The notes under the pieces: model-generated
Database searches by the model: none
What the model was told of the DNA's origin: nothing
Seen by the model: only the letters and a program-made list of their open reading frames with translations
Position numbers and translations under genes: made by a program
Source of the DNA: Puia sp.
GTDB lineage: Bacteria; Bacteroidota; Bacteroidia; Chitinophagales; Chitinophagaceae
Assembly: GCA_035946435.1 (NCBI GenBank)
Contig: DASYZH010000353.1
Coordinates: 2,376 to 66,375, forward strand
Reading direction: 5' to 3'
Length of the DNA: 64,000 nt
Shown: in pieces, positions 1,637 through 59,638 of the stretch
How positions within the stretch are numbered: position 1 is the first letter of the stretch
How the letters are laid out: each line of letters opens with the position of its first letter

Positions 1637-1661
1637 TTGATCACCTAAATCATGAAATAAG

Positions 1662-3320: not shown

Positions 3321-3321
3321 G

Positions 3322-3357: not shown

Positions 3358-3364
3358 TAAAGAA

Positions 3365-4402: not shown

Positions 4403-4471
4403 ATGTCGTAGTTTTTAATTTTTAAAAGTCGTCACCCGCGGCGTATATGTTGCACGGGGCTTTCGTCCATT

Positions 4472-4569: not shown

Positions 4570-4580
4570 CCCCAACTACC

Positions 4581-6956: not shown

Positions 6957-6988
6957 AACACCTACCTTTATAGAAAGCCACGATCCAC

Positions 6989-7876: not shown

Positions 7877-7924
7877 ACATATAACCTTTTTTAGTTATTT
7901 TGTAGAAAATTAGCGCCAGATACC

Positions 7925-9754: not shown

Positions 9755-9760
9755 CGGCAG

Positions 9761-32446: not shown

Positions 32447-32486
32447 AAGCAAATTTAATAGTAAATTACTATCAAATTCCAGTGCT

Positions 32487-36747: not shown

Positions 36748-37804
36748 TGGACAACATATTCAGGCATGCTTTCATATACCCCAATGCATAGGCCATTCCA
36801 GCGTACCAGGGACCTTCGCAATTCATCTGCGGGGTATGATCGGGAATGAGCACACCGTCGAACTGCGATGCCTGCAATATCTTAAGCACAGCGATCATAT
36901 CGATGTCGCCCTCGTCAAGGAATACCTCTTTATAATGGGGGACCTTACCCTTTACATTCCGAAAGTGGACATATGCAATATCCCGGGCAAACTCCCGTGT
37001 TGCGGCATAAATGTCGCCTTCGGTCATTTCGGCGATCGACCCCAAACAGAACTCTAGCGTATTGGCGCGGCTGGGCCGCATGTCGAGCAACCGCCGGTAC
37101 AATTGCGGCTGGTAAACCAGGCGGGGAGTTCGCCGGATAAGCGGCATGGGCGGGTCGTCGGGATGTGCCGCCAGACGAACACCGGCTTCTTCCGCTACAG
37201 GAATCAATTCGTCGAGAAAATACTGTAGCCTGTTCCAAAGCTCACCGGACGAAATTTCAGGAAGATGACCGGTGGGAGCGTTCTCATCATAGATCATATT
37301 CCAGACCATCCCGTTGGGGATCGGCCGGTCGTCTACACCATTCATTCCCACCGATACTGCATTGCCCCGGGCAAAGGGTCCTGTGATGCGGCTGGAGACT
37401 CCCGCCAGGCTGAAATTGTAGCCGATGATCGGGATGCCGGCCTTACCGACGTTGCGGATCATTTCCTTGAGCCCTTCCGCCTGTTGGGCTTTCCGTGGGC
37501 CGTCGAGCAGGATATCGTACCAATGGGCGGGGTCGAAGTTCTCGATGGCTTCCAGTTCCAGGCCCGCATCGTTTATCTCTTTTTTGAGGGCGATGAGCTC
37601 TTGCGCGGTCCATAGGTTTTTTGCATCGCCCGCAATTCCCCAGCCTCCGTCGTCGCCAATGGGCTGGTTATTCCTATTCCCCTGGTTTCCCTTGTTGAAA
37701 TAGTCTACCAGGTGAACGACCAAATGAGTACAGCCGCATTGTTTTGCAAAGTCGAAATGTCTCCGGTCAAGCATGTGCCGGTATAGGCCCAATCCAAGTT
37801 TCAT
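36734..37804 (-). CDS. Mannonate dehydratase (UxuA)-like sugar-acid dehydratase
   Basis: LEAIEN, YNFS, HPDDPP, LEFCLGS, HFRNVKG, FLDEGDIDM and PDHTP. Confidence 0.8.
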   Translation of the reverse strand: MKLGLGLYRHMLDRRHFDFAKQCGCTHLVVHLVDYFNKGNQGNRNNQPIGDDGGWGIAGDAKNLWTAQELIALKKEINDAGLELEAIENFDPAHWYDILLDGPRKAQQAEGLKEMIRNVGKAGIPIIGYNFSLAGVSSRITGPFARGNAVSVGMNGVDDRPIPNGMVWNMIYDENAPTGHLPEISSGELWNRLQYFLDELIPVAEEAGVRLAAHPDDPPMPLIRRTPRLVYQPQLYRRLLDMRPSRANTLEFCLGSIAEMTEGDIYAATREFARDIAYVHFRNVKGKVPHYKEVFLDEGDIDMIAVLKILQASQFDGVLIPDHTPQMNCEGPWYAGMAYALGYMKACLNMLSTTGS

Positions 37805-37834
37805 TTTGAATGATTTATTTGCAAAAGAAGTCGA

Positions 37835-39049
37835 TCACAAAATGCCATATTTCTTGAAGGCAGCCGTGCTGGACATCCCGTTCTCTATTTCTTTCCGGAC
37901 CAGCTTTTCACCTCTTGCTTTTTCAAGGGCGCGAACGGTGACGGCTACTTCATGCTGCCGGGGTACGATAACCACCCCGTCCATATCGCCGAATACGAGG
38001 TCGCCCGGCATGATCGTGACGCCACCGATCTCGATGCGACAGCGATAGTCGACCACTTGCGTCCGAACGCCGGAGTCCTGGGCATAGCGGCCCCTGCTGA
38101 AAACGGGCCAGTTTTGTTCGAGCACCCGGGGAGTATCGCGATAATACCCGTTGATAACGGCGCCGGAGGCGCCGCGGATCCTGGCGGTAGCTGTAAGGAT
38201 CTCTCCCCAATAGGCGCAACGCATTTCCCCACCGGTGGCAATATATATTTCGTTCTTTTCGAGTTGGTCGAGCGCTTCCGTGAGTTTCCCGAACGGCGTT
38301 TGCTGAGGCCCGTATACGTCGATCATCAGGACAGGCATAGCTCTGCCGATAAGTTTGTCCTCGATACGGACCGGCTGGATGGGTTGGGGAAGAAATTGGT
38401 GATAACAACCCAATTCGTCGAGGATGTCACCAACCACCGGGGTATAGAGTTCGGATCTGTATAACGAGAATAACTCCTCATCGTCATTCCATGACGGCCG
38501 CTGAAGGTTTTTGTGTGTTGACGTTTCTATCATTTTTTTGGAATTATCGATTGACTTATAATTTTCAAGGCTGGTCCCGTTGCTTTCGACCGCACGCATT
38601 ATTTTTTGCCGCAGGTCCTCTTTTTCCGCCGGGGATAATTGCCGGAAGACGAAATCTCCCAGGTGGGTGTCATTGCGTTCGACGATGATGACCGAGGCCG
38701 TTTTGTCCATCGCGATATTGTGCCAGGTGCCGGCAGGGATATTATAGGTGATCCCGGGCCTCATCAGGATGCATTCGTAGTCGAGCTTCCCGTTTTCACC
38801 AGGCGCCCCCGATGAGTCGAGCTTCCCGTTTTCACCGGGCGCCCCCGAGGGATGGGCGGCGATGAGCACGGCCGATCCCCGAAGGAGGATAAACACCTCG
38901 TCGGTAAGCCGATGCATATCGATCTTGGCAATCCCCGCCAGGTCCTGTTCATCGAGGTGATTTAGCTGGGCCACCTGCCATCCCGCCCGGATCAAAAAGG
39001 GATCGTATCCGGGGCCGGCATGTTCGTATTTTTCGATTTTTGATTTCAC
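37835..39049 (-). CDS. Cupin domain fused in frame to an RraA/HMG-aldolase family domain
   Basis: Likely GTG start at 39049. Cupin motifs: [22 protein letters not shown]. RraA motifs: [37 protein letters not shown]. There is a possible second ATG at 38533. Confidence 0.75.
38779..38848. repeat. In-frame tandem duplication, 36-bp period ([11 protein letters not shown] x2)
   Basis: AGTCGAGCTTCCCGTTTTCACC(A/G)GGCGCCCCCGA at 38779 and 38815, with one mismatch. Confidence 0.9.
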
Positions 39050-39053
39050 GGGC

Positions 39054-39848
39054 TTATTTTTTTGGTCGGGGATCATATGGGATCGTGGTTTCCTTGTAAC
39101 CGCCATCGACGTACAGCTCCGTGGCGGTGAAATAGGCCGCCTTGTCACTGGCGAGGAAGGCACAGGTCCAGGCGACATCCTCCACCCTGCCGACACGCCC
39201 CATGGGAATCCAGCCATTGAATTTATCGCGCCCAAAAGATTCAATTTCGTGCCGGTTCATCTCGGTCTCGATAGCGCCGGGCGAGACGGCGAGCACACGA
39301 ATATGATGTTCGGCCAGTTCCAGCGCGAGACACTTGGTCATCATATTCAGACCCGCTTTGGCGGAACAGTAGTGGATCAGCCCTTTGCGGGGGATCTTAT
39401 CATGGATGGAGGAGATGTTCAGGATCACGCCGGTGTTTCGCGGGATCATCCTCCTTGCTGCTTCCTGGGCACAAAAGAAGGCTCCCCGCAAATTTACATT
39501 TAAAACCCGGTCCCATGTTTCGGGATCGAGGTCTACCGCGTGTTCGACCGTTTCGCAGCCGGCATTATTAACCAGGATATCGATTGTGCCATGCGTATTG
39601 TCGAAATCGCGGAACATCGCCAGGACCTCCGGCTTATCTGAGATGTCCGCGGCGAAGGCATTTGCTCTGACCCCATAACGCGCGTTTAGCTCTTTGGCGA
39701 GATCAAGGGCGTTTTGCTGATCCTGGTAATGGTTGATCATCAAATTCGCGCCGCAGGCAGCCATGGCGTGAGCGATGCCCGCTCCGATCCCCCGGCTTGC
39801 TCCGGTGATCAGTACGTTCTTATTTTTGAGATCGATGGTATTTTCCAT
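39054..39848 (-). CDS. SDR oxidoreductase, glucose/aldose 1-dehydrogenase-like
   Basis: [27 protein letters not shown] and PGAIET. The HDKIP..HY pattern resembles Bacillus glucose 1-dehydrogenase. Confidence 0.85.
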
Positions 39849-39865
39849 AAACAAGGTGGTGTCGG

Positions 39866-41077
39866 TTATGCTTTCGTTGTGGTTTGATCAAGAAATCCCC
39901 GGACCCGGGCTTCATCCCAGCCGCAGACCTCCCTGAGTATTTCGGCGGTATGTTCACCAAGGAGGGGCGCAGGCCGGCGGACCCCCGCAGGGGTCTTACT
40001 GAACGATACTGGGATGCCGGTCGTCGCAACTTTACCGGCGGTAGGATGATCATAGTTTATGATCATTTCATTATGCAGCACCTGCGGGTCTACGACCATT
40101 TCCCTGAAGCTGTTGACCTGGGAGCACCAGATATCGTGCTGGAGCAGCAGGGCCAGCCATTCATCGGTGGTCCGGGTACGGAATACGGCTGCGAAGTCGG
40201 CGTAAATGGCGTCGCGGTCCTCGATGATATTGTTGCCGGCGTATTTTTCGGCGTCATATTTCGTGATGCCCATGATCCGGGCCAGCGCACGAACCGAATT
40301 CATGCCGATCGCGATGAAGCTGTCCCGGGTGGGATACAGGCCGTAGGGTGCGCCAAGCCATGGATTCGGGATACCGCTGCTGCTTCTCTCGGGGTTCTCG
40401 CCTTTGCAGAGATAGGCGGTGATCTCCTGGGTATGAAAGGCAATGATGGAGTTGAGGAGACAGGCGTCGATGCGCTGTCCCTGCCCCGTTTGTTCCCGGT
40501 AGTAAAGGGCTGCCAGTACGCTCTGCACGATAAACAGACTGGTAAGCAGGTCGGCCTGACCGACCGCAGTGACGACCGGCAGCTCGCCGCGCCGGCCGTT
40601 GAGATAGGCGCCGCCGGCGAGAGACTGCGCCAGCAGATCCTGACCCGGGCGTTTTTGGTAGGGGCCGTCGCTCCCATAGCCGGAACTGGCGCAATAGATG
40701 AGACCGGGATTGGAAAGTTTGAGCGTTTCGTAGCCGATCCCCAACCGATCCATGACCCCGGGCCGAAAATTCTCGATCAGGATATCGCACCGGGAGATGA
40801 TCGCCCGGGCGGCCTCCAGACCTTGTTCGGATTTCATGTCAAGGGCGATACTGCGTTTGTTGCGATTGAAACCCAAAAAGGATATGCTTTCGCCGGCCGG
40901 GTAGAGATTGCCGTAGGCATATTTCCGCATCCAGTCGCCGGCAGGCGGCTCGATCTTGACGATCTCGGCGCCCATATCGCCGAGCATCTGGGTTGCCCAG
41001 GGGCCCTGTACGAGTTGGGTGAAATCGGCTATGCGGACACCAGCCAATGGCCCCTTGTTGTTATTTTCTTTTTGCAT
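39866..41077 (-). CDS. Family III CoA-transferase (CaiB/BaiF)
   Basis: LAGVRIADFTQLVQGP, NRNKRSIALD, ENFRPGVMDRLG, GQDLLAQ and APLLGEHT. Confidence 0.93.
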   Translation of the reverse strand: MQKENNNKGPLAGVRIADFTQLVQGPWATQMLGDMGAEIVKIEPPAGDWMRKYAYGNLYPAGESISFLGFNRNKRSIALDMKSEQGLEAARAIISRCDILIENFRPGVMDRLGIGYETLKLSNPGLIYCASSGYGSDGPYQKRPGQDLLAQSLAGGAYLNGRRGELPVVTAVGQADLLTSLFIVQSVLAALYYREQTGQGQRIDACLLNSIIAFHTQEITAYLCKGENPERSSSGIPNPWLGAPYGLYPTRDSFIAIGMNSVRALARIMGITKYDAEKYAGNNIIEDRDAIYADFAAVFRTRTTDEWLALLLQHDIWCSQVNSFREMVVDPQVLHNEMIINYDHPTAGKVATTGIPVSFSKTPAGVRRPAPLLGEHTAEILREVCGWDEARVRGFLDQTTTKA

Positions 41078-41078
41078 A

Positions 41079-42245
41079 TTATTTGCCGTTTAATGTGCGG
41101 GGAAAGTTAGACAATACCTGATTGCCCTCCCCGGTTACCAAAATATTGTCTTCTATCCGCAGACCGCCCATTCGATCGATGTAGACACCGGGCTCGACTG
41201 TGACAACCATGCCCTCCCTGAATACGCCCTCGGAATACGGCGACAACACTTCTCCGGGATCATGATAGCGGAAGCCAACGTGATGTCCAAGCGCATGGTT
41301 GAACTTATCGCCGAATCCCGCATCGCGGATGATGTTGCGTGCCGCGGCGTCAACCTGCCGCATCGCCATGCCCGGGCGTATCAAATGGATGGCCGCCGTC
41401 TGTGCCCGGCTCACCGTATCGTACAAAGATTGTTGTTCAGGGCTGGGTTCACAAGGCAGCGCCGTGCGGGTAATATCGGCCCAATAGCCGTTTACACAAA
41501 CACCCATTTCAAGGAGAACGAAGCCTTCGCTTCGGATGACCTTCCCGGTACTCCTGTTGAACCTGCCGGCGTCGGCGGTATTGAGGCCGGACTGCACCAT
41601 CGGCCATGCTTTTGCAAAGCCGATTCCGTCTCGGTCAATCGTTTCCTGGACGGCCAGTTCGATGAGGCCGGCGAGCCGGGCCTCGGAATGTCCCTTAACT
41701 ACCTCCGCATAGAATTCCCTAATGGCTATTCCCGCCACCTCGTGCGCCAAATGTAAGCCGGCAACATCGGTTGGACTCTTATATTCGTAGAGCCGGAGCA
41801 AATCGGAAGTGATGTCCCGGAAGCCGCCTGCAAGACTGGCGAACTGTTGGACGAGATCGGCCGGCAGTGGTGGCTGCTCCCCGGACATCCGGCAGGGGGC
41901 GCTGCCGCCGATGGATGGAATATAGGAGCAGGGCAGTCGGGTAAGATCCTTCAGCCGCAATACATCAGCCATAAGTTTATAAAGGCAGGGCCAGGGATCT
42001 TCGCCATTGTGCACGCCCCACGGGAATCGCCGGATCTCGATATGCTGCGGCAGACAATCATCGGGCTCCAACTCCGGCACAAAGAGTACCGGTTCACCAT
42101 CTGCCGTATAGAGCAGTACGGACAGGCCCCAGAGCGGCATATAGCCGAGCATCATCACCAATTCATCGGGACGCCAGAAGACCAGGGCTGAAAGCTGGTG
42201 GCGGCGCAGGAGCCGATCGGTTATCTCTTTTCTGTATCGATCCAT
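41079..42245 (-). CDS. M24 (Xaa-Pro peptidase / pita-bread fold) family enzyme
   Basis: ADITRT, HALGHHVG, VTVEPGVY and GGLRIEDN. The first metal ligand appears to be Glu (LLEMG). Confidence 0.85.
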   Translation of the reverse strand: MDRYRKEITDRLLRRHQLSALVFWRPDELVMMLGYMPLWGLSVLLYTADGEPVLFVPELEPDDCLPQHIEIRRFPWGVHNGEDPWPCLYKLMADVLRLKDLTRLPCSYIPSIGGSAPCRMSGEQPPLPADLVQQFASLAGGFRDITSDLLRLYEYKSPTDVAGLHLAHEVAGIAIREFYAEVVKGHSEARLAGLIELAVQETIDRDGIGFAKAWPMVQSGLNTADAGRFNRSTGKVIRSEGFVLLEMGVCVNGYWADITRTALPCEPSPEQQSLYDTVSRAQTAAIHLIRPGMAMRQVDAAARNIIRDAGFGDKFNHALGHHVGFRYHDPGEVLSPYSEGVFREGMVVTVEPGVYIDRMGGLRIEDNILVTGEGNQVLSNFPRTLNGK

Positions 42246-42248
42246 GAG

Positions 42249-43019
42249 CTACTTTGAATTCTTTTCTGTGAATTTCTTTATGAGATCCTGAGCTACCGGG
42301 TGGTTGAACAGTTCGATCACGGCTTCTCCTTCCTGATCCAGCCGGGTCTCGAAGGGCAGGCCGATCGCCGCCGGAGTGAGCATGGCCTTGATCGCCTTTG
42401 TTGAAATGCGCGGTCTGCGTTGAAGCTTTTGCGCAAGCGCGAGAACGGTGGCCGGAAGGTCTTCGCCGGCCGGAGTATCGTATACGATCCCCCAATGATG
42501 CAGTTGGGCAGCCGGGTACGAACCTCCAAGCAGGAGCATCTCTTTTGTCCGGTTGACTCCTACCTTTTGCAGCAGCCGTTGAGCACCGCCGCCGCCGGGG
42601 ATGAGTCCGAGATGGATCTCCGGCAGGCCCATGGAAGCCGAGACAGCGGCAACGATAAAGTCACAGGCAAGCGCGATCTCGAAACCGCCGCCCAGGGCAT
42701 ATCCGTTGACAGCGGCGATAAAGGGAATTTCCGCCGTTTCGATAAGCGAGTAGAGCTGACGTCCCTGGCGCTGGAACCGGACGAACTGGTCGTTAGTCTG
42801 TGCGGCATATTCTTTGATATCGGCGCCCGCCATAAAAGCGCGACCCTTGCCGGTGATAACGGCCACGTCGATGTGTTTGTCCTGTATGATGGCCTGAAGC
42901 GCGGCGATGATCTCGTCCATCATGCGGCGGTTCATGGCATTGAGCTGGTCCGGTCTGTTAAAGGTCAGGGTTGCGATGCCGGCTGTGACGGTATATTCGA
43001 TGGTCTCAAATGATTGCAT
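42249..43019 (-). CDS. Enoyl-CoA hydratase/isomerase family protein
   Basis: LTFNRPDQLNAM, AFMAGADI, GYALGGGFE and LPEIHLGLIPGGGG. Confidence 0.93.
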   Translation of the reverse strand: MQSFETIEYTVTAGIATLTFNRPDQLNAMNRRMMDEIIAALQAIIQDKHIDVAVITGKGRAFMAGADIKEYAAQTNDQFVRFQRQGRQLYSLIETAEIPFIAAVNGYALGGGFEIALACDFIVAAVSASMGLPEIHLGLIPGGGGAQRLLQKVGVNRTKEMLLLGGSYPAAQLHHWGIVYDTPAGEDLPATVLALAQKLQRRPRISTKAIKAMLTPAAIGLPFETRLDQEGEAVIELFNHPVAQDLIKKFTEKNSK

Positions 43020-44157
43020 GGCAGAGCGTTTGATAAAGGTTGTTCAATTGCTTCAGAACGGACTTTCCATCCCTGTTTTTTAACACTGCATCATGGATGT
43101 GGTCGGCGCCCTGTTCCTGGAAGCGATTGAAGCCAGGCACTCCCGAACGGCGATAGGCGTGTCGCAGGGTATCCAGTGTACCGGCAAAAAAACGGCCGCA
43201 ATCCTCGTTACAGGCCGGGTCGAGCCAGGTGGTGAGATGAGCAGGCTGGCCGCCATTTTCGTAGTAGACGGTTCGCTGGATCCCCGGGTCCAGAACGTAG
43301 CGGATGAAATCAAAACAAGCATCCCTGTGCCTCGACTTGCTGGAAACGGCAATCCCTGCGCCGCCTAAGAGGGTCGATACCTCTCCTGGGCCAAAGCGGG
43401 GTGCATCGATGAAGGTGAGGCGGTGATGGGGAAATTTCTTACGGGAGTAATTCGTATAGCCAAAACTAAAAGGACAGTAGACGATATTTTCTTCAAGCGC
43501 CATTTTATCGAGGAGCTGGATGGGATTGAGGCGTAAGGAATCAGGGTGTAAGAAGGACTGCCACTGTTTCAATAGCTCCAGGGCCCAGCTGCCGGCGGCG
43601 GAGTCGATACCTTCCGCTGTAAAGAAGTTACCGACTGTAAACTGTGCACAGAGCGTCAGGAAAACGCACCAGATATCAGTAGGGCAAAGCGGAATGGCCA
43701 TTTTGTATTGCCGTGGCAACAAACCGGCTGCCTCCCGGAGATGAACGGTCGAAAGCGGCGGATGCCAGCCCAGGGCATCCGTAATATCGCGGCGGCATAC
43801 GGCCACCTGGGCGGCGGCATCGACCGGCAGGGCATAATGTTTGCCACGCCAGCTGTAGCTTTCATAGGACGGACCTACGCTTTGTTTTTGCTGCGAAGCA
43901 AGGAAGCCGGCCCCGAGAAAGTCGTTCAAGGGCAGGAGGTAGCCATTGGCGCCGGCCTCTCCCATATAGGGGTGATCGATGATCAGCAGATCGTAACGGT
44001 CGATGAGTTTCTCGACGGGGAGATCGCCGAATTCTTTGAGGGTACGGACATCCCATTCGAGGCGATGGCCGGTGCGTTTCTCCCAGCAAGCGGCGGCCGC
44101 TCTCAGGGGTTGATAGCCTCTTGGATGGTCCCAGGTAATACCTTTTAAAAGGGTCAT
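43006..44157 (-). CDS. Family 1 solute-binding-protein-like protein lacking a signal peptide
   Basis: The start was moved to ATG 44157 (MTLLKGITWDHPRG). Motifs: DLLIIDHP, ALPVDAAAQV, LGGAGIAVS and GGQPA. There is no hydrophobic N-terminus. Confidence 0.75.
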   Translation of the reverse strand: MTLLKGITWDHPRGYQPLRAAAACWEKRTGHRLEWDVRTLKEFGDLPVEKLIDRYDLLIIDHPYMGEAGANGYLLPLNDFLGAGFLASQQKQSVGPSYESYSWRGKHYALPVDAAAQVAVCRRDITDALGWHPPLSTVHLREAAGLLPRQYKMAIPLCPTDIWCVFLTLCAQFTVGNFFTAEGIDSAAGSWALELLKQWQSFLHPDSLRLNPIQLLDKMALEENIVYCPFSFGYTNYSRKKFPHHRLTFIDAPRFGPGEVSTLLGGAGIAVSSKSRHRDACFDFIRYVLDPGIQRTVYYENGGQPAHLTTWLDPACNEDCGRFFAGTLDTLRHAYRRSGVPGFNRFQEQGADHIHDAVLKNRDGKSVLKQLNNLYQTLCHAII

Positions 44158-44168
44158 ACTATTTTTTG

Positions 44169-45593
44169 TCAGTTTAATTTTGCTTTCCATTCCCGTTCGA
44201 TCTCCTCCAGGGATTGGCCTTTTGTTTCGGGTACCGTGCGTAGAACGAAGATCATGGCGGGGATCATGGTCAATCCATACAGGATAAAAGTGAACCCGAT
44301 GCCCAGGGACTCCCGAAGCAGCGGATACGTTTGAGTTACGAATGTCGAACCGACAAACAGCGATAGCGTGCCGATGGACATGGCGCGGCCCCTGATCCGC
44401 GTCGGAAAGATCTCGGCGATGACGACCCATACACCGGGGCCGATACTGGCCGCGAATACGGCGATATAGAAAATGAAGCATCCCATAAGAAGTCGTTGGT
44501 TTCCGTCAATGAAGAACAGCACCCCGATTGCGAGCAGGGCGATGGAAAGGCCGGCAAATCCACCGACGAGCAGTCTTTTCCTACCCCAGTGGTCGATCTT
44601 CCAAATTGCGACGAATGTAAAGATCATGTTGAAGAACCCGATGACGGCTGCGCTTTCCATCGCGGATCCGGAGGCAAACCCTGCTTTTTCGAAGATAGCC
44701 GGCGCATAGTACATGACGGTGGTGATGCCGGTAAGCTGGCTGAGGAAGGGCAGGATGATCCCGATCGCCAAGGCCGTCCGAATCCCCGGAGCCAGGAGTT
44801 GCCGGAAGCTTCCCTTCTTGTCGTCTGCGAGCGCCGCGACGATCGTGTTCAATTCGTTCCGGGCTTGCTCCGATCCATTGATCCTCAAAAGGATCTCGCC
44901 TGCTTTCGAGCTTCTACCCTCTTTTATCAGCCAGCGCGGGCTTTCGGGTACGCCCAGCAGGAGCAGGAGGAAGAGGATCGCAGGGATCATATTGGAGCCC
45001 AGCATGCCGCGCCAGGGTTCGGCAACGAAGTAGGGCCATAATATTCCGCCACCGGCGGCATGATGGAGGGCATCCAAGGCATGGCTGGAGGCATCCTGGG
45101 CATGGCTGGAGGCGTAATGCAACAACCCGGCATTCGAAAGATAGCTGCAGAGGATACCCAGGGTGATCGCCAATTGATAAAGCGAAACCAGCCTTCCCCG
45201 TAGCCTGGCCGGCGCCAGCTCGGAAATAAACAGCGGGGCCACCATCGCCGCGAATCCTACCCCAATGCCGCCCACTATACGGGCCAGCACCAACCATGCC
45301 GGGTTCAAGGCCAGCATACAGCCCGCCGCGGAAAGGATAAAGAGAAGGGCGGAAGAGACGAGCATTTTTTTTCGCCCATACTTGTCCGCGAGATAGCCGG
45401 CAATCGCGGCGCCGGCGACACAACCGACGAGCGCCGAGCTCATGATCCATCCCTCCATCGCCGGGCTCAGCCGGAATTGGTCTTTGAGGAAGCCTACCGC
45501 GCCCGAGATAACAGCCGTGTCGAAACCGAACAAAAAGCCACCCATGCCCGCTGTCGCACAGATCGCCGTCAAATAGGTATTCCCCTTGATCAT
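44169..45593 (-). CDS. MFS sugar porter (XylE/GalP-like)
   Basis: GGFLFGFDTAVISG, DKYGRK, ISELAPARLRG, PESPRWL and VPETKGQSLEEIE. Confidence 0.95.
   Translation of the reverse strand: MIKGNTYLTAICATAGMGGFLFGFDTAVISGAVGFLKDQFRLSPAMEGWIMSSALVGCVAGAAIAGYLADKYGRKKMLVSSALLFILSAAGCMLALNPAWLVLARIVGGIGVGFAAMVAPLFISELAPARLRGRLVSLYQLAITLGILCSYLSNAGLLHYASSHAQDASSHALDALHHAAGGGILWPYFVAEPWRGMLGSNMIPAILFLLLLLGVPESPRWLIKEGRSSKAGEILLRINGSEQARNELNTIVAALADDKKGSFRQLLAPGIRTALAIGIILPFLSQLTGITTVMYYAPAIFEKAGFASGSAMESAAVIGFFNMIFTFVAIWKIDHWGRKRLLVGGFAGLSIALLAIGVLFFIDGNQRLLMGCFIFYIAVFAASIGPGVWVVIAEIFPTRIRGRAMSIGTLSLFVGSTFVTQTYPLLRESLGIGFTFILYGLTMIPAMIFVLRTVPETKGQSLEEIEREWKAKLN
45070..45111. repeat. In-frame 21-bp tandem duplication in a His-rich loop of the MFS porter
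   Basis: GCATCC(AA/TG)GGCATGGCTGGAG x2, encoding ASSHAQDASSHALD. Confidence 0.85.
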
Positions 45594-51235: not shown

Positions 51236-53926
51236 TTAATTCGTCTTAAAACCGGGATCGAACTCAAAGGTTTCTATGGCATACCTGCCGACATGCACCC
51301 GTTGTCCGCCCCGTTGAGGCGCTATCGGCTGCGGCTGTTGTTCCAGGATATTGGTCTTCTCCAAGCCACGTACACCACGGAACCAATCCAGCCGGATGTC
51401 CGACTCTTTGCCTTCGAGGTCGTAGCACCGGAGAACGATCTTGTCGAGATCATCGTTCTTCTTTATCGTAGAGATCACGATGTTGTCGGCGTCCGTGCCT
51501 GCGAAAGAAAGGCTTTCCGGCAATACGGCCTGTACGGCTGCGGGGCGAGACCGGTTGTCCGGGATATTGTCGACGACCAGCAGTGGTTGAGCGGCTTGTT
51601 TGCCCGCTTTCCAGTTCGGATGCCCCTGGCCGGAGCAAAAGGAGAAGGTAAAATGGTGGTCTCCGCGCTGAAGATACCAGTTGCCCAGCGGGCTTTCGTT
51701 ACAGGTTCGCCGGCTTGCCAGCAGCAGCGGTTGCAACACGGGCTTTGAGTTCTTGCCTGTGGGATCGATCCAGTCGAATACGGCGACATCGGAGCTAATC
51801 GCGACGGAGCCATTGTGATCCCAGGCGCCAAACCAATCCTGTACTTCGCGCGGATGGATCTCCCGGCAGGGTGTGTTATAGACCTGATCCGCTTTCGAGA
51901 ATCCCGCTGCGCGGGGCAATTCCGTTTTCCCAACCTCTACGATGCCCATCGGCACTTCGTAGTCTACATGTCCGCTATCCAGGTCCAGCGGGAAAGCCAT
52001 TCGGAATTCCCGCGAATGTTCGCCGTTGAAACCGATGATATCGGCCTGGAAATCGATGCGCGGGAGCATGGTATAGAATATGACCCGTTGCCGCACTGTA
52101 CAATTCCTCCAGGGGTGAATAGTTTCGATTACCGTCCGTACAGGGCCATTTTCTACGAGACTCCAATCCGTACCATATTGGTTCATGCGCTCAAATCCTT
52201 CCATCGTGGGTTGTTGCACAGCCGTAAATTCGCCCGCGCCGTTGCCAACGGATTGCATCGAAAACACCTCGCCGGCGAGCAATCCGCCGGGGAGTATCCA
52301 CTCACGTGACAAGCGCCGGTCAAATATAGAACTAATGCCGCCTTTCGCAAGTGTGATCTTGTAAAACCTGGTATCGACAACGTTACCGGTTATGTTGATC
52401 CGCAATTTCTGATCGTCTGCCGCCCTGCCGGGGATAAGATAGAAGGTGGAATAGCCTATGGATGGGATATCCCGTGCGACAAACGCGATGGTAAGGGTGG
52501 ATTGGGGTCCTTTGTCGGGAGAAGAGACTACCTGGTAATCCACCGGATCGCCCTTGGCATCGACCAATTGAAACTCGTTGTCATAAATACCTTCCATGTC
52601 GATCGTGGCCTCGACGGGGTCGGTACGCGTCCAGGACAAGGGATTGAACACGACAATGGGTTTGCCAATGGATTTGAATTTGATGGCATGTACAATATCG
52701 TCAAGCTTTGTTTTAAGGATCGAGTCCCCTACCCTTGCGGCCAGTGCATAGCTGTTCGCGTAGATGGCATCCGTGATGTCGCCATGTACGCCGCCCCAAC
52801 CATGATCCGGATAGATCGCGTGCTGCCAGGCCTGGTCGAAGGCGGCTTGTGGGTAATCCTTGAAATTCCCCTGCAGGACCGCGGCAACGGCCGAGAACTT
52901 CTCCGCCGCAGTAAGCACTCTCGAGGAATGTCTTGCTGTCTTGATAGCCTTCTCATGGGCAGGGCCGTGAATATATAGCCAAAGGTTCGGGTATTCGCCC
53001 TGAACGCTGTCGATATGACCGGAAGAGGAGGTCAGCGCGGCAAGCGCTTCGGTACCGGTGGCATAGCCGATGGTCGGGAGCGGCTCATGCCGGTCCTTCA
53101 ACTCGGTATTCCATTGATTGAAAAAGCCATCGTAGTTGGGAGGCACGGAAAAATCCTGGGAGTTGAGCCAGATGAAGTTTGGGGGAAGCTGGTGGTCCTT
53201 ATAGTATCCCGCCCATTCCGCCAGCCGGGCTTTGACAACAGCCGCGCGCTGTTCATTTGTGGCGGCATGGATCAAGGGAATGGATGATTCGTAGTATTGA
53301 CCGGGTGTCCAGCAAGTAACAAAGCTGCCATCCGGGCTGAACCATTTATAGACACCGGGCTGGAACCTGCTGAATTGGAGGAACCGGATCCCTGCTTTCG
53401 ACCAGATCTGGGCCGTCTGGAGGGATCTGCCCGGGACATCTTCCGACCACGCCGTGATGAAGCGGCCGCCGGGGATCATTTTCTCGAGCTTTTTCTTACC
53501 GTAGTATACCTCGCGGATAAGTGCTTCTCCTTCGTAGAGACCCTCATAGGGTTGATTGTAGGTAGCGCCCCATTCCATTCTTCCCTCCCGGGTATATCGG
53601 ATGATATCCGGTAACCGGTCGGGATGACGTTCGACATACTCATAGAAGTTGAGCGCATTCTCTACGGAAAAACAGAACTTATCATTCTGTTTTAGTCTTT
53701 CGAGGGCCGGCGTGATCATGAATTTGTCGCGAAACCGGCGGCAGCTGTCAGGGGTATCCATCCAGGCGATGTCCTGGTGTGAAGAGGGCACCACGAGGAC
53801 CTTGCCACCGCTAAAACTTTCGTAACCGTTGGACACCCGGGCGCCGCCGTCCTGGCCCAGGCTAACCCGGGACACAAGGACGGACAGCAACCAAACCAGG
53901 CCTGCGAATCTTAAACCTTTTCTCAT
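51236..53926 (-). CDS. GH38-like glycoside hydrolase (paralogue 3)
   Basis: Signal peptide, SSHQDIAW, SEDVPG, WLYIHGP, YPDHGWGG and VFNPLSWTR. Confidence 0.82.
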   Translation of the reverse strand: MRKGLRFAGLVWLLSVLVSRVSLGQDGGARVSNGYESFSGGKVLVVPSSHQDIAWMDTPDSCRRFRDKFMITPALERLKQNDKFCFSVENALNFYEYVERHPDRLPDIIRYTREGRMEWGATYNQPYEGLYEGEALIREVYYGKKKLEKMIPGGRFITAWSEDVPGRSLQTAQIWSKAGIRFLQFSRFQPGVYKWFSPDGSFVTCWTPGQYYESSIPLIHAATNEQRAAVVKARLAEWAGYYKDHQLPPNFIWLNSQDFSVPPNYDGFFNQWNTELKDRHEPLPTIGYATGTEALAALTSSSGHIDSVQGEYPNLWLYIHGPAHEKAIKTARHSSRVLTAAEKFSAVAAVLQGNFKDYPQAAFDQAWQHAIYPDHGWGGVHGDITDAIYANSYALAARVGDSILKTKLDDIVHAIKFKSIGKPIVVFNPLSWTRTDPVEATIDMEGIYDNEFQLVDAKGDPVDYQVVSSPDKGPQSTLTIAFVARDIPSIGYSTFYLIPGRAADDQKLRINITGNVVDTRFYKITLAKGGISSIFDRRLSREWILPGGLLAGEVFSMQSVGNGAGEFTAVQQPTMEGFERMNQYGTDWSLVENGPVRTVIETIHPWRNCTVRQRVIFYTMLPRIDFQADIIGFNGEHSREFRMAFPLDLDSGHVDYEVPMGIVEVGKTELPRAAGFSKADQVYNTPCREIHPREVQDWFGAWDHNGSVAISSDVAVFDWIDPTGKNSKPVLQPLLLASRRTCNESPLGNWYLQRGDHHFTFSFCSGQGHPNWKAGKQAAQPLLVVDNIPDNRSRPAAVQAVLPESLSFAGTDADNIVISTIKKNDDLDKIVLRCYDLEGKESDIRLDWFRGVRGLEKTNILEQQPQPIAPQRGGQRVHVGRYAIETFEFDPGFKTN

Positions 53927-55413
53927 TTTAAATTGGGATTTATTTCTACCTCGGCGAGGGGGATCGGGAATTGAAGATTATTGGTCTGAAAGGTCGCCCC
54001 CGAGGGCAGTGTAAAGCCTACAGCATTCACCATGGTATTATGAACGGCGTCGAAGATCTGGTGCGTACGGACGATATCGTACCAATTCTGATTTTCGCCA
54101 CAGAGCTCCCACCATCTTTCTTTCCACACTTCGTTTTGGAAATCCGACTGGCTGAGACCCGACAAGGCGGCGAGCCCGGCCCTGGTGCGAATAGCGTTGA
54201 GAGCAGCGTAAGCGGCAGCATTGGGTGAGCCGTCAGCCGCGTTTTGAGCCTCTGCATAGGTCAGCAGGATATCGGCATAGCGGATGACGGGAAAGTTCTT
54301 GCTCGAAAAGGGTGCGTTTGTGAGCAGGCCTTTATCGAAGAACTTATAGAGGCTCCAGGGGAAATTGTAGGCGGAGCCGCCAACGGTGATGTTGTTGAAA
54401 AAGAAGCCATTTTGTTGGCCACGCAGGTCGGCAGGGTCGTAGGAAGCGACGAAGCTGGTTTGCGGTACGAGCAGACCCTGGTCGTTGTTAACAGCGCTGG
54501 CACTGATAAAAGTTACGCCTTTGGGGCAAAGCTCGAGCGGAAGAATATCGTTGACGATATAGGAGCTGAAATTGATGTCCCATATATGTTCCTGGGTGTT
54601 GTCGAAAGCCGGGTTGTTGAGCTTGTCAAACCAGGTCATATTGGCATCCGTTTGAAAGAGGGAGAAATTCCCGCTGTTGATCACCTCTAAAGCCTTGTTA
54701 CGTGCCAGGGCGTAGTTGGCCGTCTCATTGACAGGATAACCGGCCATGGCAAGATAGACTTTTGCCAGCAGGGCCGATGCGGCGCCGGTCGAAACACGTC
54801 CGGAACCGGCGGGAGTGGCTCGCATGCCGCTCGCTTCGGCCGCCTGCAGGTCGGGAACGATCTCCTGCTCATAGATATCTTTTACCGGGGTCTTTGACAG
54901 CAAGCCGTCGCTGGCGCTCTTTGTAGGGGTTAGTTTCAACGGCACGTCGCCAAAGATGTTGACGAGCGTATAATAAAAGTACGCCCGCAGGAATCTGGCC
55001 TCGCCGATGAGCGCGCTTCGTTGCACGGTATCCATAGAAATACCCGGCACATTGGCGATTACGAGATTGGCGGCTTCGATGCCCTGGTAAGCGGAAGAGA
55101 ACCATTGTTCCAGCAGGGGGCTGGCGGAGTTCTGGCGAAGGTTGTAGACGTTGACCAGGTCGTTACCTTCGGACACCGTATTAAATTGACCGGTGACCAG
55201 TTCCAGCATCGCATAACTGTAGTTACGACCACCGCCCGTATAGGGAACATAAAGATTGGCGTAGATGCCATCGACGGCAGACTGCGCATCCTCGGCGGTC
55301 TGATAATATTGGTTAGTTGTAATTACAGACTTAGGATCTTCTTTCAGCCATTTTTTACAGCCCGGGAAGGCGATGATCGCTATGATGAAGAGAGCTATAT
55401 TCTTCGATTTCAT
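53923..55413 (-). CDS. SusD/RagB family lipoprotein
   Basis: Lipobox AFPGC, GEARFLRAYFYYTLV, GRVSTGAA, IRYADILL and ERWWELCGE. Confidence 0.95.
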   Translation of the reverse strand: MKSKNIALFIIAIIAFPGCKKWLKEDPKSVITTNQYYQTAEDAQSAVDGIYANLYVPYTGGGRNYSYAMLELVTGQFNTVSEGNDLVNVYNLRQNSASPLLEQWFSSAYQGIEAANLVIANVPGISMDTVQRSALIGEARFLRAYFYYTLVNIFGDVPLKLTPTKSASDGLLSKTPVKDIYEQEIVPDLQAAEASGMRATPAGSGRVSTGAASALLAKVYLAMAGYPVNETANYALARNKALEVINSGNFSLFQTDANMTWFDKLNNPAFDNTQEHIWDINFSSYIVNDILPLELCPKGVTFISASAVNNDQGLLVPQTSFVASYDPADLRGQQNGFFFNNITVGGSAYNFPWSLYKFFDKGLLTNAPFSSKNFPVIRYADILLTYAEAQNAADGSPNAAAYAALNAIRTRAGLAALSGLSQSDFQNEVWKERWWELCGENQNWYDIVRTHQIFDAVHNTMVNAVGFTLPSGATFQTNNLQFPIPLAEVEINPNLK

Positions 55414-55424
55414 TTTTTCTTTTT

Positions 55425-58400
55425 TTAGAGATTTGCGGTGATGCCGACGGTGAAGGTCCTGGGACGGGGTGAGCCATAGAATTCGACACCCTGTGAAAAG
55501 GTCGAACCGCTGAAGGTGCTGACTTCAGGATCGAAACCGCGATACTTCGAGATCAGGAAGAAGTTATTTACGTTGCCGTATACCCGCAGGCCGGACAAGC
55601 CCAGCCTTTTGGATTGCTTTTCCGGAAAGGCATACGAACAGTTGATGCTTTTCCCTCTTATGAAGGACCCATCTTCGACCCAACGGCTATCCATGAAGAA
55701 GGGCAGGTCGGTACCCCAGGGATCGACATTCGCAAAGCGAAGGGCCGGGACCATCGTGTTTTGATTTTGCGGGGTCCAGGCATCCCTGAGGATGGTGGAA
55801 TAGCTGTTGGCATAATATTGCCGGTCTTCCAGTGTCAGGGTCGAGACGTTCATGACCTTGTTCCCGTGCCGGATCATCACGTCTGCGCTTAAGGTCCAGT
55901 TGTGATAGCGGACGGTGGTCGTCAGATCCAGCTCATATTTGGGAAACATATTGCCCAGCACCATGGCGTCGCTGTTGTCGAAAACGTGGTCGCCATTGAC
56001 ATCCAGACGTTTGATATCACCCGGTTTCTTGCCATACAATGCAGCTTCGGCAGCTTCTTTTGTACCCCAGACCCCGATACGTTTGAAGCCCCAGAAATTC
56101 CCGAGTGGTTTACCCACCTGCAGGATATTGGTCTGGCCGAGGAAGTTTGGTCCGGGATAGATATCCGCGTTGGTGGTACCCAGGGCCAGTATTTTGCTTG
56201 CATTGGTCGAGAATTGGGCGCCGAGGCTCCAGGTGAGATTTGCTGTACGCAACACGTCTCCATTGACCGCCAATTCAAAACCCTGATTCTGGAGACTGCC
56301 GATATTGGTGAATACGGACGAGTAGCCGGTGACCGTGGTCACGGGTACGTTGAGGAGCAGATTGGTAGTTTTCTTCTTATAGTAATCGGCCGTCGCACTC
56401 AGGCGATCATCGAGCACTTTAATATCCAGGCCGAGATCGGCCTCCGCCGTTTGTTCCCATTTGAGGTTGGGATTGGGGATGCTCACCGGCGCGGTGCCGC
56501 GAACGATCTGGTTGTCCATTGCAATCGTGTAGACACCAACATTACCCAGAGACGAGTAGGGGGGAATTTCCGAATTACCGGTCAATCCGTAGCTGCCCCG
56601 GAATTTTAAGAAAGAAATAAAGCCATTGTGGGCGAGGAAATTCTCTTTGGAAGCGATCCAGCCCAAGGCGCCCGATGGAAAGAAGGCGAACTTGTTGGCA
56701 TCCCCGAATTTGGATGATCCATCATACCTGCCGGTGAACGTCAGCAGGTATTTTTCGAGATAACTGTAGTTAAGCCTGCCGTAATAGGAGTTGAGTTTGT
56801 AATTACTATAGCTGGACAGGGGGGTTCCGGGCACGGAGCCGGCGCTGAGGTTGTTGAATTGATAAAAATCGGTTGAGAATTCCGTGGCGCTGGCCGTAAC
56901 ACCCTCGGTGGTGGAAGACATCCAACTGCTGCCGAGAACCGCGTTCAGGTGATCGTTACCGGTAAAGGTCCGATCATAAGTTAAATAGTTCTCGACCTGC
57001 CAGTAATTGGTCCGGGTGTCGCCTACCGAGGCCTGGCCGTTGGTAGATGCCCCCATGCTTTCCAATTCCTTACTCAGGTAAAAATTGTTCTTTTGAGAAA
57101 ATATCTGCGATGCATAGGTCGACTTGAGGGTCAGTCCTTTCGCAAGCCGGATATTGGCATAGAGATTCAGCAGCACCTGATCTGTGAGATAGATATTGGT
57201 GAAGTTCTGCAAAATACGCACCGGGTTCTCCGCCGGATATACACCCGATTTCGTGTGGTTGCCCGAAGCATCGAAATTGTATCCGAACTGATCCAGGCGG
57301 CTCCAGGTGCCGTCCGGGTATTTTACCGGGAAGATCGGCAGCATTTCGATCATCATACGGGTGGGCGTCATGCCGCCGACCCCGTAGTCATCGAGTTGAT
57401 TGGTGTTGATCTGGTTGTAGGCGATGTCCCCGCCCGTAGTCAGCCAGGGACGAAGCGTTTGCTCGGTGTTGTAGCGAACACTGAGCTTCTTATAGTAAGT
57501 ATTGAGCAGGATACCCTGATCATCCTGGTAACCGGTATAGAGGCCCGATTTCGATTTTGTCGTGCCTGAGGTAAGTGAAACAAAATGACGATGAGAGATC
57601 CCGGTTTGGGTGGCTTCCTTCTGCCAGTCCGTATTGTAGATCGGCTGTTCGTTGGAATTGAACAAGAGCGGGTAATCGGCATGGAGATCGGGCAGCGGCC
57701 CGCGATCCGGGTTGTAAGCCCAGGCACGGGTAAACCAATCCATCCAGCCTTTGGAATCCAGCATGCTCATCCTCCGGGCGAGGACATTGGCGCTGACACT
57801 ACCGTTATAAGCTATGCTGAAGTCGCCGTTGCGGGCTCTTTTGGTAGTGACGATGATGACCCCGTTCGCGCCCCTGGCTCCATAGATCGCGGTCGAAGAC
57901 GCGTCTTTGAGTACATCCACGGCTTCGATATCGGAGGGATTGATCGACTGGAAATCGGCGCCTACGATCCCGTCGATGACGAATAGCGGCGAGTTGGAAG
58001 CCGAGATGGAGTTGAAGCCGCGGAGATTGACGCTGATCCCGCCGCCGGGACGGCCGGAGTTGTTGTAGATACTGAGGCCGGGCACTTTACCAGAGAGCGC
58101 CTCCAGCGGGTTGGAAGTGATCCTATCCGCCATATCGGAGGCTTTTACCGAAGCAACGGAGCCGGTTACATCCGCTTTTTTCTGTGTACCGTAACCGATA
58201 ACGACTACATCATTCAGGACGCTTGTCCTTGGCACCAGTGCGACCTGCACCGCGCCATTGCCATGGACCAGGACCGTTTGCTGCTGGTATCCCGTAATGC
58301 TGAAGATAAGGGCGGCGCCATCGGTCGCCTCGATGGAGAATTGGCCACGTTCGTTTGTTGCGGTGCCCCTTTGGGAGCCCTTGATCGTTACGTTTACACC

Positions 58401-58550
58401 GCGTAGCGCAAGGCCGGTGCTGTCGGTGACGGTGCCGGTGACATGTGTCGGTGTGCGTTGCCCGGCGGCATTAAAACAAAGGGCGAGAGCGAGACTAAAA
58501 AAACAGAATGTTTTTAAGATCCGGGGGGGAGCTTTTCTTTCTCTTTTCAT
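55425..58550 (-). CDS. SusC/RagA TonB-dependent receptor
   Basis: VVVIGYGTQKK, VLKDASSTAIYGARGANGVIIVTTK, NPNLKWE and C-terminal YGSPRPRTFTVGITANL. Confidence 0.96.
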   Translation of the reverse strand: MKRERKAPPRILKTFCFFSLALALCFNAAGQRTPTHVTGTVTDSTGLALRGVNVTIKGSQRGTATNERGQFSIEATDGAALIFSITGYQQQTVLVHGNGAVQVALVPRTSVLNDVVVIGYGTQKKADVTGSVASVKASDMADRITSNPLEALSGKVPGLSIYNNSGRPGGGISVNLRGFNSISASNSPLFVIDGIVGADFQSINPSDIEAVDVLKDASSTAIYGARGANGVIIVTTKRARNGDFSIAYNGSVSANVLARRMSMLDSKGWMDWFTRAWAYNPDRGPLPDLHADYPLLFNSNEQPIYNTDWQKEATQTGISHRHFVSLTSGTTKSKSGLYTGYQDDQGILLNTYYKKLSVRYNTEQTLRPWLTTGGDIAYNQINTNQLDDYGVGGMTPTRMMIEMLPIFPVKYPDGTWSRLDQFGYNFDASGNHTKSGVYPAENPVRILQNFTNIYLTDQVLLNLYANIRLAKGLTLKSTYASQIFSQKNNFYLSKELESMGASTNGQASVGDTRTNYWQVENYLTYDRTFTGNDHLNAVLGSSWMSSTTEGVTASATEFSTDFYQFNNLSAGSVPGTPLSSYSNYKLNSYYGRLNYSYLEKYLLTFTGRYDGSSKFGDANKFAFFPSGALGWIASKENFLAHNGFISFLKFRGSYGLTGNSEIPPYSSLGNVGVYTIAMDNQIVRGTAPVSIPNPNLKWEQTAEADLGLDIKVLDDRLSATADYYKKKTTNLLLNVPVTTVTGYSSVFTNIGSLQNQGFELAVNGDVLRTANLTWSLGAQFSTNASKILALGTTNADIYPGPNFLGQTNILQVGKPLGNFWGFKRIGVWGTKEAAEAALYGKKPGDIKRLDVNGDHVFDNSDAMVLGNMFPKYELDLTTTVRYHNWTLSADVMIRHGNKVMNVSTLTLEDRQYYANSYSTILRDAWTPQNQNTMVPALRFANVDPWGTDLPFFMDSRWVEDGSFIRGKSINCSYAFPEKQSKRLGLSGLRVYGNVNNFFLISKYRGFDPEVSTFSGSTFSQGVEFYGSPRPRTFTVGITANL

Positions 58551-58759: not shown

Positions 58760-59638
58760 ATGAAGGCCCAACTGATCGAAGTAGGATTGCAAAAAGAACA
58801 AACTTTTTTTGTTAAAAAGCTTGACTGTGATCGCTTTACAACCCCTTTCCATTTTCATGAACTTTGTGAATTGAATTTTGTCGTAGAGAGTTCCGGCAAG
58901 CGGATCGTGGGAGACAATATCGCCAGCTTTTCGTCCGGCGACCTGGTGCTAATGAATTCGAATCTCCCTCATATCTGGTACAACGACAAGGATTACCTGG
59001 CGGACGAGAGCCGCGGGACCGCGAAGGCGATCGTGACCTATTTCGATACTCATTTCCTGGTAAACCTATGCAATGACGAACAATATTCGGTGAAGATCAA
59101 AAACCTGATGGAGAGGGCGAAGCGGGGAATCCGGTTCGTAGGAGATACGCAACAACATGCGGCCCAAAGGTTGCAAAATATCGCCGGGAAGCAGGGATTG
59201 GAGCGGCTCATCGATTTCCTGCACCTGATCCACTTGTTTATGGAAAGCGACGAATATGAATACCTTGCCACTTTCGGTTACAACAACTCCTTTAACGAAA
59301 AGGATACAGAGCGTATGAGCCGGGTTTACCAATACCTCATACAGAATTTCACGGAAAGCATTCCCCTGTCAAAGGTTGCGGCGATAGCGAACCTGACGCC
59401 ACCGGCCTTTTGCACCTTTTTTAAAAAACGCACCCAGCGCTCGTTCTCACGCTTCCTGAATGAACTGCGCATCGGACATGCGTGCAAACTTCTTCAAAAC
59501 GAAAGCCTGTCGATCTCGGATATATGCTATCTGTCGGGATATGAGAACCCCACGAATTTTAATAAATTCTTCAAAGAGATCACCCGGAAGACACCCTCTC
59601 AATATCGCAGGGAATTCTTTGATCCCTTAGAGAAATAA
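58760..59638 (+). CDS. AraC family transcriptional regulator (cupin + double HTH)
   Basis: FHFHELCELNFV...GKRIVGD, ANLTPPAFCTFFKK, RIGHACKLL and SGYENPTNFNKFFK. It is divergent from susC. Confidence 0.95.
   Translation: MKAQLIEVGLQKEQTFFVKKLDCDRFTTPFHFHELCELNFVVESSGKRIVGDNIASFSSGDLVLMNSNLPHIWYNDKDYLADESRGTAKAIVTYFDTHFLVNLCNDEQYSVKIKNLMERAKRGIRFVGDTQQHAAQRLQNIAGKQGLERLIDFLHLIHLFMESDEYEYLATFGYNNSFNEKDTERMSRVYQYLIQNFTESIPLSKVAAIANLTPPAFCTFFKKRTQRSFSRFLNELRIGHACKLLQNESLSISDICYLSGYENPTNFNKFFKEITRKTPSQYRREFFDPLEK

Follow-up and report, generated by a model that had tools for sequence, protein, structure and literature searches.

A candidate aldonolactone hydrolase with the M24 (pita-bread) fold in a GH38-linked sugar-acid operon of Puia sp.

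Gene content of the operon

We examined a stretch of 64,000 nucleotides from Puia sp. (GenBank assembly GCA_035946435.1, contig DASYZH010000353.1, positions 2,376 to 66,375), hereafter the window, for the role of an M24 (pita-bread) protein encoded between a family III coenzyme A (CoA)-transferase and a crotonase-type enoyl-CoA hydratase (ECH). The three genes are adjacent, as the original prediction for this DNA had it, and are open reading frames (ORFs) on the minus strand. ORFs and Pfam matches place them in a single tightly packed minus-strand operon, which runs from a SusC/SusD pair to a UxuA-like dehydratase gene. The gaps between ECH and M24 (3 nt) and between M24 and the CoA-transferase (1 nt) are so short that the three genes are probably translationally coupled. 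A promoter and terminator scan of positions 36000-46000 gave counts not above those in shuffled sequence and was uninformative on internal transcription signals. The features of the locus are:

41079..42245, minus strand: M24 (pita-bread) protein, 388 amino acids (aa); PF00557, 166.1 bits against a cut-off of 23
41508..41510, minus strand: GAA codon of Glu246 in the M24 gene, from the phmmer alignment to prolidase 1wy2
39866..41077, minus strand: family III CoA-transferase, 403 aa; PF02515, 376.6 bits against a cut-off of 23.3
42249..43019, minus strand: crotonase-type ECH, 256 aa; PF00378, 197.9 bits
43006..44157, minus strand: cytoplasmic protein resembling solute-binding proteins (SBP-like), 383 aa, without a leader; weak PF01547 and PF13416 matches
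44169..45593, minus strand: major facilitator superfamily (MFS) sugar porter; PF00083, 371 bits
39054..39854, minus strand: short-chain dehydrogenase/reductase (SDR), probable aldose (mannose) 1-dehydrogenase; NF005559, PDB match 3ay6
37835..39076, minus strand: one open frame for a small cupin (start 39076) and an RraA-like aldolase (Met at 38533); PF03737, 110 bits
36734..37804, minus strand: UxuA-like (mannonate-type) dehydratase, 356 aa; PF03786, 176.7 bits
45590..53926, minus strand: three GH38 paralogues in the upstream part of the operon
53923..58550, minus strand: SusD/SusC pair, head of the operon
58760..59638, plus strand: AraC-family regulator, divergent from the operon and kept in related Bacteroidota loci

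An altered and invariant metal site in the M24 protein

The M24 translation carries GFVLLEMGVCVNGYWADITRT, NHALGHHVGFRYHD, VTVEPG, and LRIED, and in its VLLEMG segment Glu246 occupies the position of the first metal-binding Asp of prolidases. In a phmmer alignment with the Pyrococcus horikoshii prolidase 1wy2 (E = 1.4e-39), VVIDLGALYQHYNSDITRT stands opposite VLLEMGVCVNGYWADITRT, and the other four ligands (D257, H321, E351, and E365) are kept. The resulting set, E246-D257-H321-E351-E365, departs at its first residue from the canonical D-D-H-E-E dinuclear set of Xaa-Pro dipeptidases and aminopeptidase P (M24B). The original prediction had noted an altered ligand in LLEMG with the other motifs retained, and this reading agrees with the alignment. 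Among 83 M24 homologues from 84 loci of Bacteroidota, Acidobacteriota, Verrucomicrobiota, and Chloroflexota, Glu246 is invariant (83/83), as are all five ligand positions; the substitution is thus neither a chance nor a private change. In metallosites of the MetAP type, the first Asp is a bidentate ligand of the weaker second metal, so a Glu at this position may reshape or remove that metal. Overall, the invariant E-D-H-E-E site points to hydrolytic chemistry.

Several differences go beyond those in the original prediction. N230-R231 stand where the Pyrococcus prolidases have their 'PH' histidine (R231 in 82/83 homologues), an R326-Y327 pair new to this group lies between H321 and H328 (83/83), C250 and W255 are invariant, and the alignment shows no equivalent of the Arg in the Pyrococcus 'HEWPR' segment. 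H317 and H328 of the prolidases are kept and, like the four unchanged ligands, are common to M24, Pyrococcus prolidase, and Escherichia coli YpdF. The M24 N-terminus (MDRYRKEITDRLLRRHQ...), judged by eye, has no hydrophobic leader, in line with the earlier statement that the protein lacks a signal peptide.

The AlphaFold2 model of M24 (pLDDT 93.9) has the two-domain architecture of prolidases, with a creatinase-N-like N-terminal domain and a pita-bread domain. Its best Foldseek match is 1wy2 (TM 0.77, 25% identity), and prolidases matched at TM values of about 0.76-0.80, including Pyrococcus prolidase (1wy2, 1pv9) and YpdF (5cnx) at 0.76-0.78 and about 25% identity. Creatinase (1chm, 7yto) and the ectoine hydrolase DoeA/EutD (6twk) matched at TM 0.72-0.78 with 16-18% identity, and the N-domains of Spt16 share the fold as well. 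At the level of NCBIfam equivalogs, M24 reached none of the peptidase models: PepQ (NF040821) scored 142 against a cut-off of 630 bits, the YpdF-type model (NF007310) 133 against 393, and PepP (NF008131) 65 against 465. The two DoeA models were likewise far from their cut-offs (47.7 against 575 and 29 against 613 bits), and no DddP-type family was among the Pfam and NCBIfam matches, the presence of a DddP model in these libraries being unconfirmed. Taken together, M24 is a cytoplasmic protein for which a peptidase role is unlikely.

The Glu ligand is not confined to the loci compared here. An exhaustive phmmer search of M24 against 1.84 billion representatives of 50% clusters gave 345 matches below 1e-30, of which we examined the best 149. 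Glu stood at the first-ligand position in 109 of these, mostly in full-length alignments and usually together with W255 and Y327, whereas the 31 with Asp were classical prolidases whose alignments were for the most part limited to the C-terminal domain. Of the 149, 18 shared the strict signature that marks the subfamily of the window's M24 (R231, E246, C250, R326, and D329). PDB matches at E < 1e-10 were all named prolidases or aminopeptidases, with Asp at this position in all three alignments inspected. By these alignments, the Glu ligand is a clade marker rather than a single mutation. As a side observation, a few near relatives of M24 carry His or Gln in place of the first ligand and end the set with Cys or Asn (e.g., H...D...H...E...C).

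Conserved partners of M24

To define the genomic context of M24, the window's proteins were mapped by tblastn onto loci of isolate genomes and metagenome-assembled genomes (MAGs), and about 190 related loci were compared. Neighbours within 6 kb were counted at the 57 M24 loci flanked on each side by 5 kb or more. M24 lay beside an RraA-like gene at 54/57 loci, a UxuA-like gene at 53/57, an MFS porter at 49/57, and an SDR at 47/57, while GH38 accompanied it at 13/57. The CoA-transferase, ECH, and SBP-like genes occurred all three or not at all, at 8/57 loci; the remaining 49/57 had neither CoA-transferase nor ECH. Because of these 49 loci, the CoA enzymes are accessory to M24, which itself is part of a sugar-acid core.

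The usual gene order in Acidobacteriota is RraA-M24-(SDR)-UxuA-like-MFS, and most of these loci have no glycosidase nearby. Pedobacter and Flavobacterium carry MFS-M24-SDR-cupin-RraA-UxuA behind GH38 genes and lack the CoA genes. The CoA trio together with M24 was found in Flavitalea, Puia, Ginsengibacter, one Prolixibacteraceae MAG, and one Chloroflexi MAG, and the order SBP-ECH-M24-CoA-transferase recurs in the window and about 10 related loci. In a phylum-wide survey of Bacteroidota, RraA-like genes were present in 7/401 genomes and CoA-transferase orthologues in 5/301, which is too sparse for statistics.

A known lactonase family in the place of M24

Using the SBP-like protein as a probe, we searched for related neighbourhoods in other Bacteroidota and reached Flagellimonas (L086), Flavivirga (L085), Carboxylicivirga (L087), Echinicola (L186), and Flavihumibacter (L184), together with contigs assembled from a sequencing run and from marine metagenome data (L185, L094). 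Four further genomes (G682, G466, G606, G295) were found through a genome-wide CoA-transferase search and the phylum-wide RraA-like survey. These clusters are orthologous to that of the window, with identities of 65-72% for UxuA, 66-67% for the CoA-transferase, 53-58% for the SDR, 49-54% for ECH, and 45-48% for RraA. M24 is absent from them, and a seven-bladed-propeller 'Lactonase' of PF10282 is present. NCBIfam classifies the propeller as 6-phosphogluconolactonase-like (7e-56), under the equivalog cut-off.

At five loci (L086, L094, L179, L185, L186), the PF10282 gene sits exactly in the slot of M24, between ECH and CoA-transferase; elsewhere in the cluster, it follows ECH at L085, which has no CoA-transferase, and takes other positions at L087, L183, and L184. 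The Flavihumibacter locus (L184, Chitinophagaceae) reads SusC, SusD, GH38, MFS, SBP, ECH, CoA-transferase, SDR, cupin, RraA, UxuA, which is the exact gene order of the window minus M24, with the PF10282 gene after UxuA. None of the 13 genomes searched genome-wide had an M24 orthologue, and 8/13 (G401, G402, G403, G682, G466, G606, G295, G418) carried a closely related PF10282 gene within the cluster or not far from it. In G295, a cluster without CoA genes (L180) reads GH38-RraA-MFS-cupin-SDR-Lactonase-UxuA. All four combinations therefore exist, M24 or PF10282 lactonase, each with or without the CoA trio, and M24 and the CoA genes thus vary independently.

In a tree of the UxuA-like proteins, M24-type and lactonase-type loci are interleaved within one Bacteroidota clade (support 95), and an Acidobacteriota clade of 56 rows is M24-type in 52/56. 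The simplest reading of these patterns is that M24 and the PF10282 protein, which are mutually exclusive in the Bacteroidota genomes tested, do the same job. Since the propeller fold of the PF10282 lactonases (6-phosphogluconolactonase YbhE type) is unrelated to that of M24, this would be non-orthologous displacement, not homology, and the two probably share a function.

An oxidative sugar pathway with a missing step

The core enzymes around M24 look like those of an oxidative aldose pathway. The SDR passes the NF005559 glucose 1-dehydrogenase model (224.7 against a cut-off of 215 bits), and its best PDB match is the Bacillus megaterium glucose 1-dehydrogenase 3ay6 (3.6e-48); enzymes of this type yield a lactone. 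The UxuA-like protein matches the Streptococcus suis mannonate dehydratase 3ban (9.2e-36), and at L087 the genes after it encode PfkB and a PF01081 Eda-type aldolase, from which we take its product to be 2-keto-3-deoxygluconate (KDG). The RraA-like family includes the HMG/CHA pyruvate aldolases (PDB 3noj). By this assignment, a lactonase would be the only standard step without an obvious gene: most clusters have SDR and dehydratase, and a recognisable lactonase lies within 6 kb at only 9/57 M24 loci. M24 thus stands at the step from an aldose 1-dehydrogenase to an aldonate dehydratase, and its place can be taken by known families of lactonases.

The same logic recurs in a second cluster of the same genome (contig C72, L088 5053-11871), which combines an enolase-superfamily dehydratase, an SMP-30 lactonase, two SDRs, an SBP-like paralogue (36%), an MFS transporter, and an RraA-like protein 71% identical to that of the window, with an MGH1-like glycoside hydrolase upstream. 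It is a parallel cluster for sugar oxidation that has a third family of lactonases.

On the observed gene content, conservation, and gene-for-gene replacement by a known lactonase family, we infer the substrate, chemistry, and metal requirement of M24: with a probability of roughly 0.55, it is a cytoplasmic, metal-dependent aldonolactone hydrolase with the pita-bread fold and not a peptidase, and its substrate is probably D-mannonolactone. In the proposed route, 1) the GH38 enzymes would free mannose, which the MFS porter would take up, 2) the glucose-1-dehydrogenase-like SDR would oxidize mannose to D-mannonolactone, 3) M24 would open the lactone ring to D-mannonate through attack of a metal-activated water on C1, with R231, R326, and Y327 holding the sugar or the sugar carboxylate, 4) the UxuA-like enzyme would convert mannonate to KDG, and 5) the RraA-like aldolase, or KdgK and Eda in some relatives, would take KDG further, the aldolase by cleaving it.

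Two kinds of known system come close to this proposal. DoeA/EutD and creatinase are M24-fold enzymes that act on small molecules and not on peptides; DoeA opens a six-membered ring hydrolytically and is the nearest chemical precedent. Unlike these enzymes, which cleave C-N bonds, M24 would act on an ester. The step order has a counterpart in an oxidative, non-phosphorylative D-mannose route proposed for Thermoplasma acidophilum with AldT, ManD, and KDG aldolase, in which mannose passes through mannonolactone/mannonate and KDG to pyruvate and glyceraldehyde (PMC6901390). In the same work, oxidized mannose is described as mannonate in equilibrium with D-mannono-1,4-lactone (PMC6901390). The window differs in its enzyme families (UxuA-like and RraA-like), and the archaeal scheme names no lactonase, for which the clusters compared here have a slot of its own.

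If correct, our reading would assign sugar-lactone hydrolysis, an activity for which we found no report, to the metallopeptidase M24 fold, and it would supply the lactonase for an oxidative mannose route of bacteria. This route is conserved in Acidobacteriota and in Bacteroidota of soil and sea, although rare per phylum (see the survey above). Our reading would also provide a first functional handle on the large Glu-type M24 clade, whose members bear the database label 'Xaa-Pro peptidase', and it sets apart the CoA module in sugar-acid catabolism as a separate question.

Evidence against the lactonase and rival explanations

Several observations weigh against an aldonolactonase. About 10 Acidobacteriota loci hold both M24 and a PF10282 lactonase, the latter 4-5 kb upstream, and a strict mutual exclusivity of the two genes consequently fails outside Bacteroidota. 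A few other clusters (L102, L161, L166, L096-L100) have neither gene. Because lactones also hydrolyse without an enzyme, clusters of this kind are expected if the step is dispensable, and they fit any accessory role equally well. The closest solved relatives of M24 are all genuine prolidases. The case for D-mannose as the sugar consists of the GH38, GH92, and GH76 neighbours and the UxuA family, and the UxuA-like protein forms a distinct clade that, at several Acidobacteriota loci, is only 26-30% identical (tblastn) to an adjacent second UxuA-family gene, which at L162 is canonical UxuA by Pfam. Finally, we found no report of an M24 or pita-bread lactonase in the literature, little of the search having been aimed directly at it; nor did we find a description of a GH38/M24/UxuA-like/RraA-like cluster.

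Among the loci with both genes, L162 (an Acidobacteriota-type contig) was the only one scanned with Pfam, and there the lactonase is part of an adjacent module that has a dehydratase and a transporter of its own. This double module (1276-12482) begins with canonical UxuA, SDR, MFS_1, PF10282 lactonase, and an enolase-type dehydratase, and continues with RraA, M24, SDR, UxuA-like, and an MFS sugar porter. By tblastn matches, L029, L031, L053, L057, L059, L069, L070, and L082 resemble it.

Loci with both genes leave room for M24 and the lactonase to catalyse different steps, and M24 might then convert some other small, non-peptide sugar derivative of the same pathway. It could cleave a sugar-acid amide or ester, interconvert 1,5- and 1,4-lactones, or open another cyclic form in the manner of ectoine hydrolase. 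The gene neighbourhood suits such a role as well as it suits a lactonase, and the fit of the M24 model to EutD and creatinase also agrees with it. We regard this as possible but clearly the less probable option, since replacement in the same slot by a 6-phosphogluconolactonase-like protein, together with the mutual exclusion in Bacteroidota, is most simply explained by identical function. The fold and sequence matches, headed by prolidases and YpdF, and the retention of four of the five ligands along with H317 and H328 would also suit a genuine Xaa-Pro peptidase trimming proline-containing glycopeptides from mannoproteins imported by the polysaccharide utilization locus (PUL). This is improbable, given the PepQ score, three changed positions (the first ligand and, relative to the Pyrococcus enzymes, the 'PH' histidine and the Arg that follows their HE motif), and a sugar-acid rather than peptide context: M24 goes together with RraA and UxuA at Acidobacteriota loci mostly without glycosidases, the operon has no peptide transporter, and a lactonase takes the place of M24. 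A non-catalytic or regulatory protein comparable to Ebp1 or Spt16, suggested by the match to Spt16 N-domains, is the least likely of all, as the five ligand positions, and many residues of the pocket with them, do not vary among homologues from four phyla.

The original prediction had favoured M24, CoA-transferase, and ECH as one unit, in which an organic acid is released from an imported glycoconjugate by hydrolysis or DddP-like elimination, activated with CoA, and hydrated as by AcuN/AcuK. Abutment of the three genes in the window and about 10 other loci is in favour of this, as is the best PDB match of ECH, a 3-hydroxypropionyl-CoA dehydratase. We consider it no more credible than the peptidase. 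The 49/57 M24 loci without CoA genes lead us to reject an obligate unit and, together with the independent variation of M24 and the CoA genes, a functional trio; at other loci a PF10282 lactonase stands in for M24 beside the CoA trio, and in one case the trio has neither. There is no indication of organic-acid release from a glycoconjugate in loci that, in most Acidobacteriota, have no glycosidase nearby. The DddP/AcuN/AcuK analogy lacks family support: ectoine hydrolase models stay far under their cut-offs, no DMSP (dimethylsulfoniopropionate)-lyase-type family is among the Pfam and NCBIfam matches, and the nearest solved CoA-transferase is SUGCT. The context of M24 is sugar-acid catabolism, not DMSP. 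What stands of that earlier interpretation is a cytoplasmic M24 that is unlikely to be a peptidase, for which lactone hydrolysis, one of the options it listed, is now favoured.

The CoA-transferase/ECH/SBP-like module

The actual CoA unit is another trio, namely the SBP-like protein, ECH, and CoA-transferase. The SBP-like protein is always found with ECH and nearly always with the CoA-transferase, the Flavivirga locus L085 being the only incomplete trio seen; the three form a separate, optional module that M24 does not need. At that locus (Flavivirga eckloniae, 9193-14258), the genes are SDR, SBP-like, ECH, PF10282 lactonase, and UxuA-like.

ECH has the features of a crotonase (PF00378), with both catalytic glutamates present (E114 in GGGFE and E134 in LPE), and its best PDB match is 5zai (1.6e-48). 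The CoA-transferase is a clear member of family III with SUGCT 9br6 as its best PDB match (1e-72), but it reaches no NCBIfam equivalog, the best being succinate-glutarate CoA-transferase (247 against 750 bits). The AlphaFold2 model of the SBP-like protein (pLDDT 93.9) folds like carbohydrate-binding SBPs (TM about 0.82), such as those that bind sucrose, maltose, and sulfoquinovosyl glycerol. CaiB/CaiD (carnitine) and AcuN/AcuK (acrylate) present the same pairing of a family III CoA-transferase with a crotonase. In contrast to these systems, the pair in the window matches no equivalog and always occurs with a cytoplasmic sugar-SBP-like protein in a sugar-acid operon.

CoA-transferase genes recur in comparable surroundings in some marine genomes and in a further cluster of the same genome (contig C343), a recurrence that hints at genuine CoA-thioester intermediates of sugar acids. 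The C343 cluster (L089 5359-14217) encodes a metallo-beta-lactamase (MBL)-fold protein, an FAD/NAD reductase, a MaoC hydratase, an SBP-like paralogue, two family III CoA-transferases, an Amidohydro_2 protein, RhaT, and a GFO/IDH/MocA dehydrogenase, and has no classical sugar-acid dehydratase. Its Amidohydro_2 protein may be a lactonase, and the cluster hints at CoA-dependent sugar-acid chemistry. In the marine clusters of Flagellimonas (G401, L178 66-10847) and L179, an MFS-SDR pair is immediately followed by a second CoA-transferase paralogue (43-45%), which adjoins GH38 and GH92 genes and is not accompanied by ECH or SBP-like genes.

A broader and rather doubtful proposal would join the two lines of evidence: the Glu-type M24 proteins would form a large non-peptidase hydrolase branch that includes the first pita-bread sugar lactonase, and the CoA trio would be a sugar-acid shunt. 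In such a shunt, the cytoplasmic SBP-like protein would bind an aldonate or glycerate, the CoA-transferase would convert the bound acid to its CoA thioester, and the crotonase would dehydrate it at C2-C3. CoA would then be handed on by the logic of CaiB/CaiD, making the route kinase-free and ATP-free.

Other features of the window

Downstream of the operon, genes of the molybdopterin aldehyde-oxidase or xanthine-dehydrogenase type (31838-35166, plus strand) converge on its end. They could oxidize the aldehyde derived from the aldolase reaction; they are not conserved beside the cluster in relatives. Within the operon, no stop codon separates the small cupin from the RraA-like protein in the window, whereas L001, L002, and L004 have separate genes of 139 aa and 230 aa. 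Inside the cupin (38780-38848, minus strand), an 11-codon segment is duplicated, and the two 33-bp copies lie three bases (one Ser codon) apart and differ at one base.

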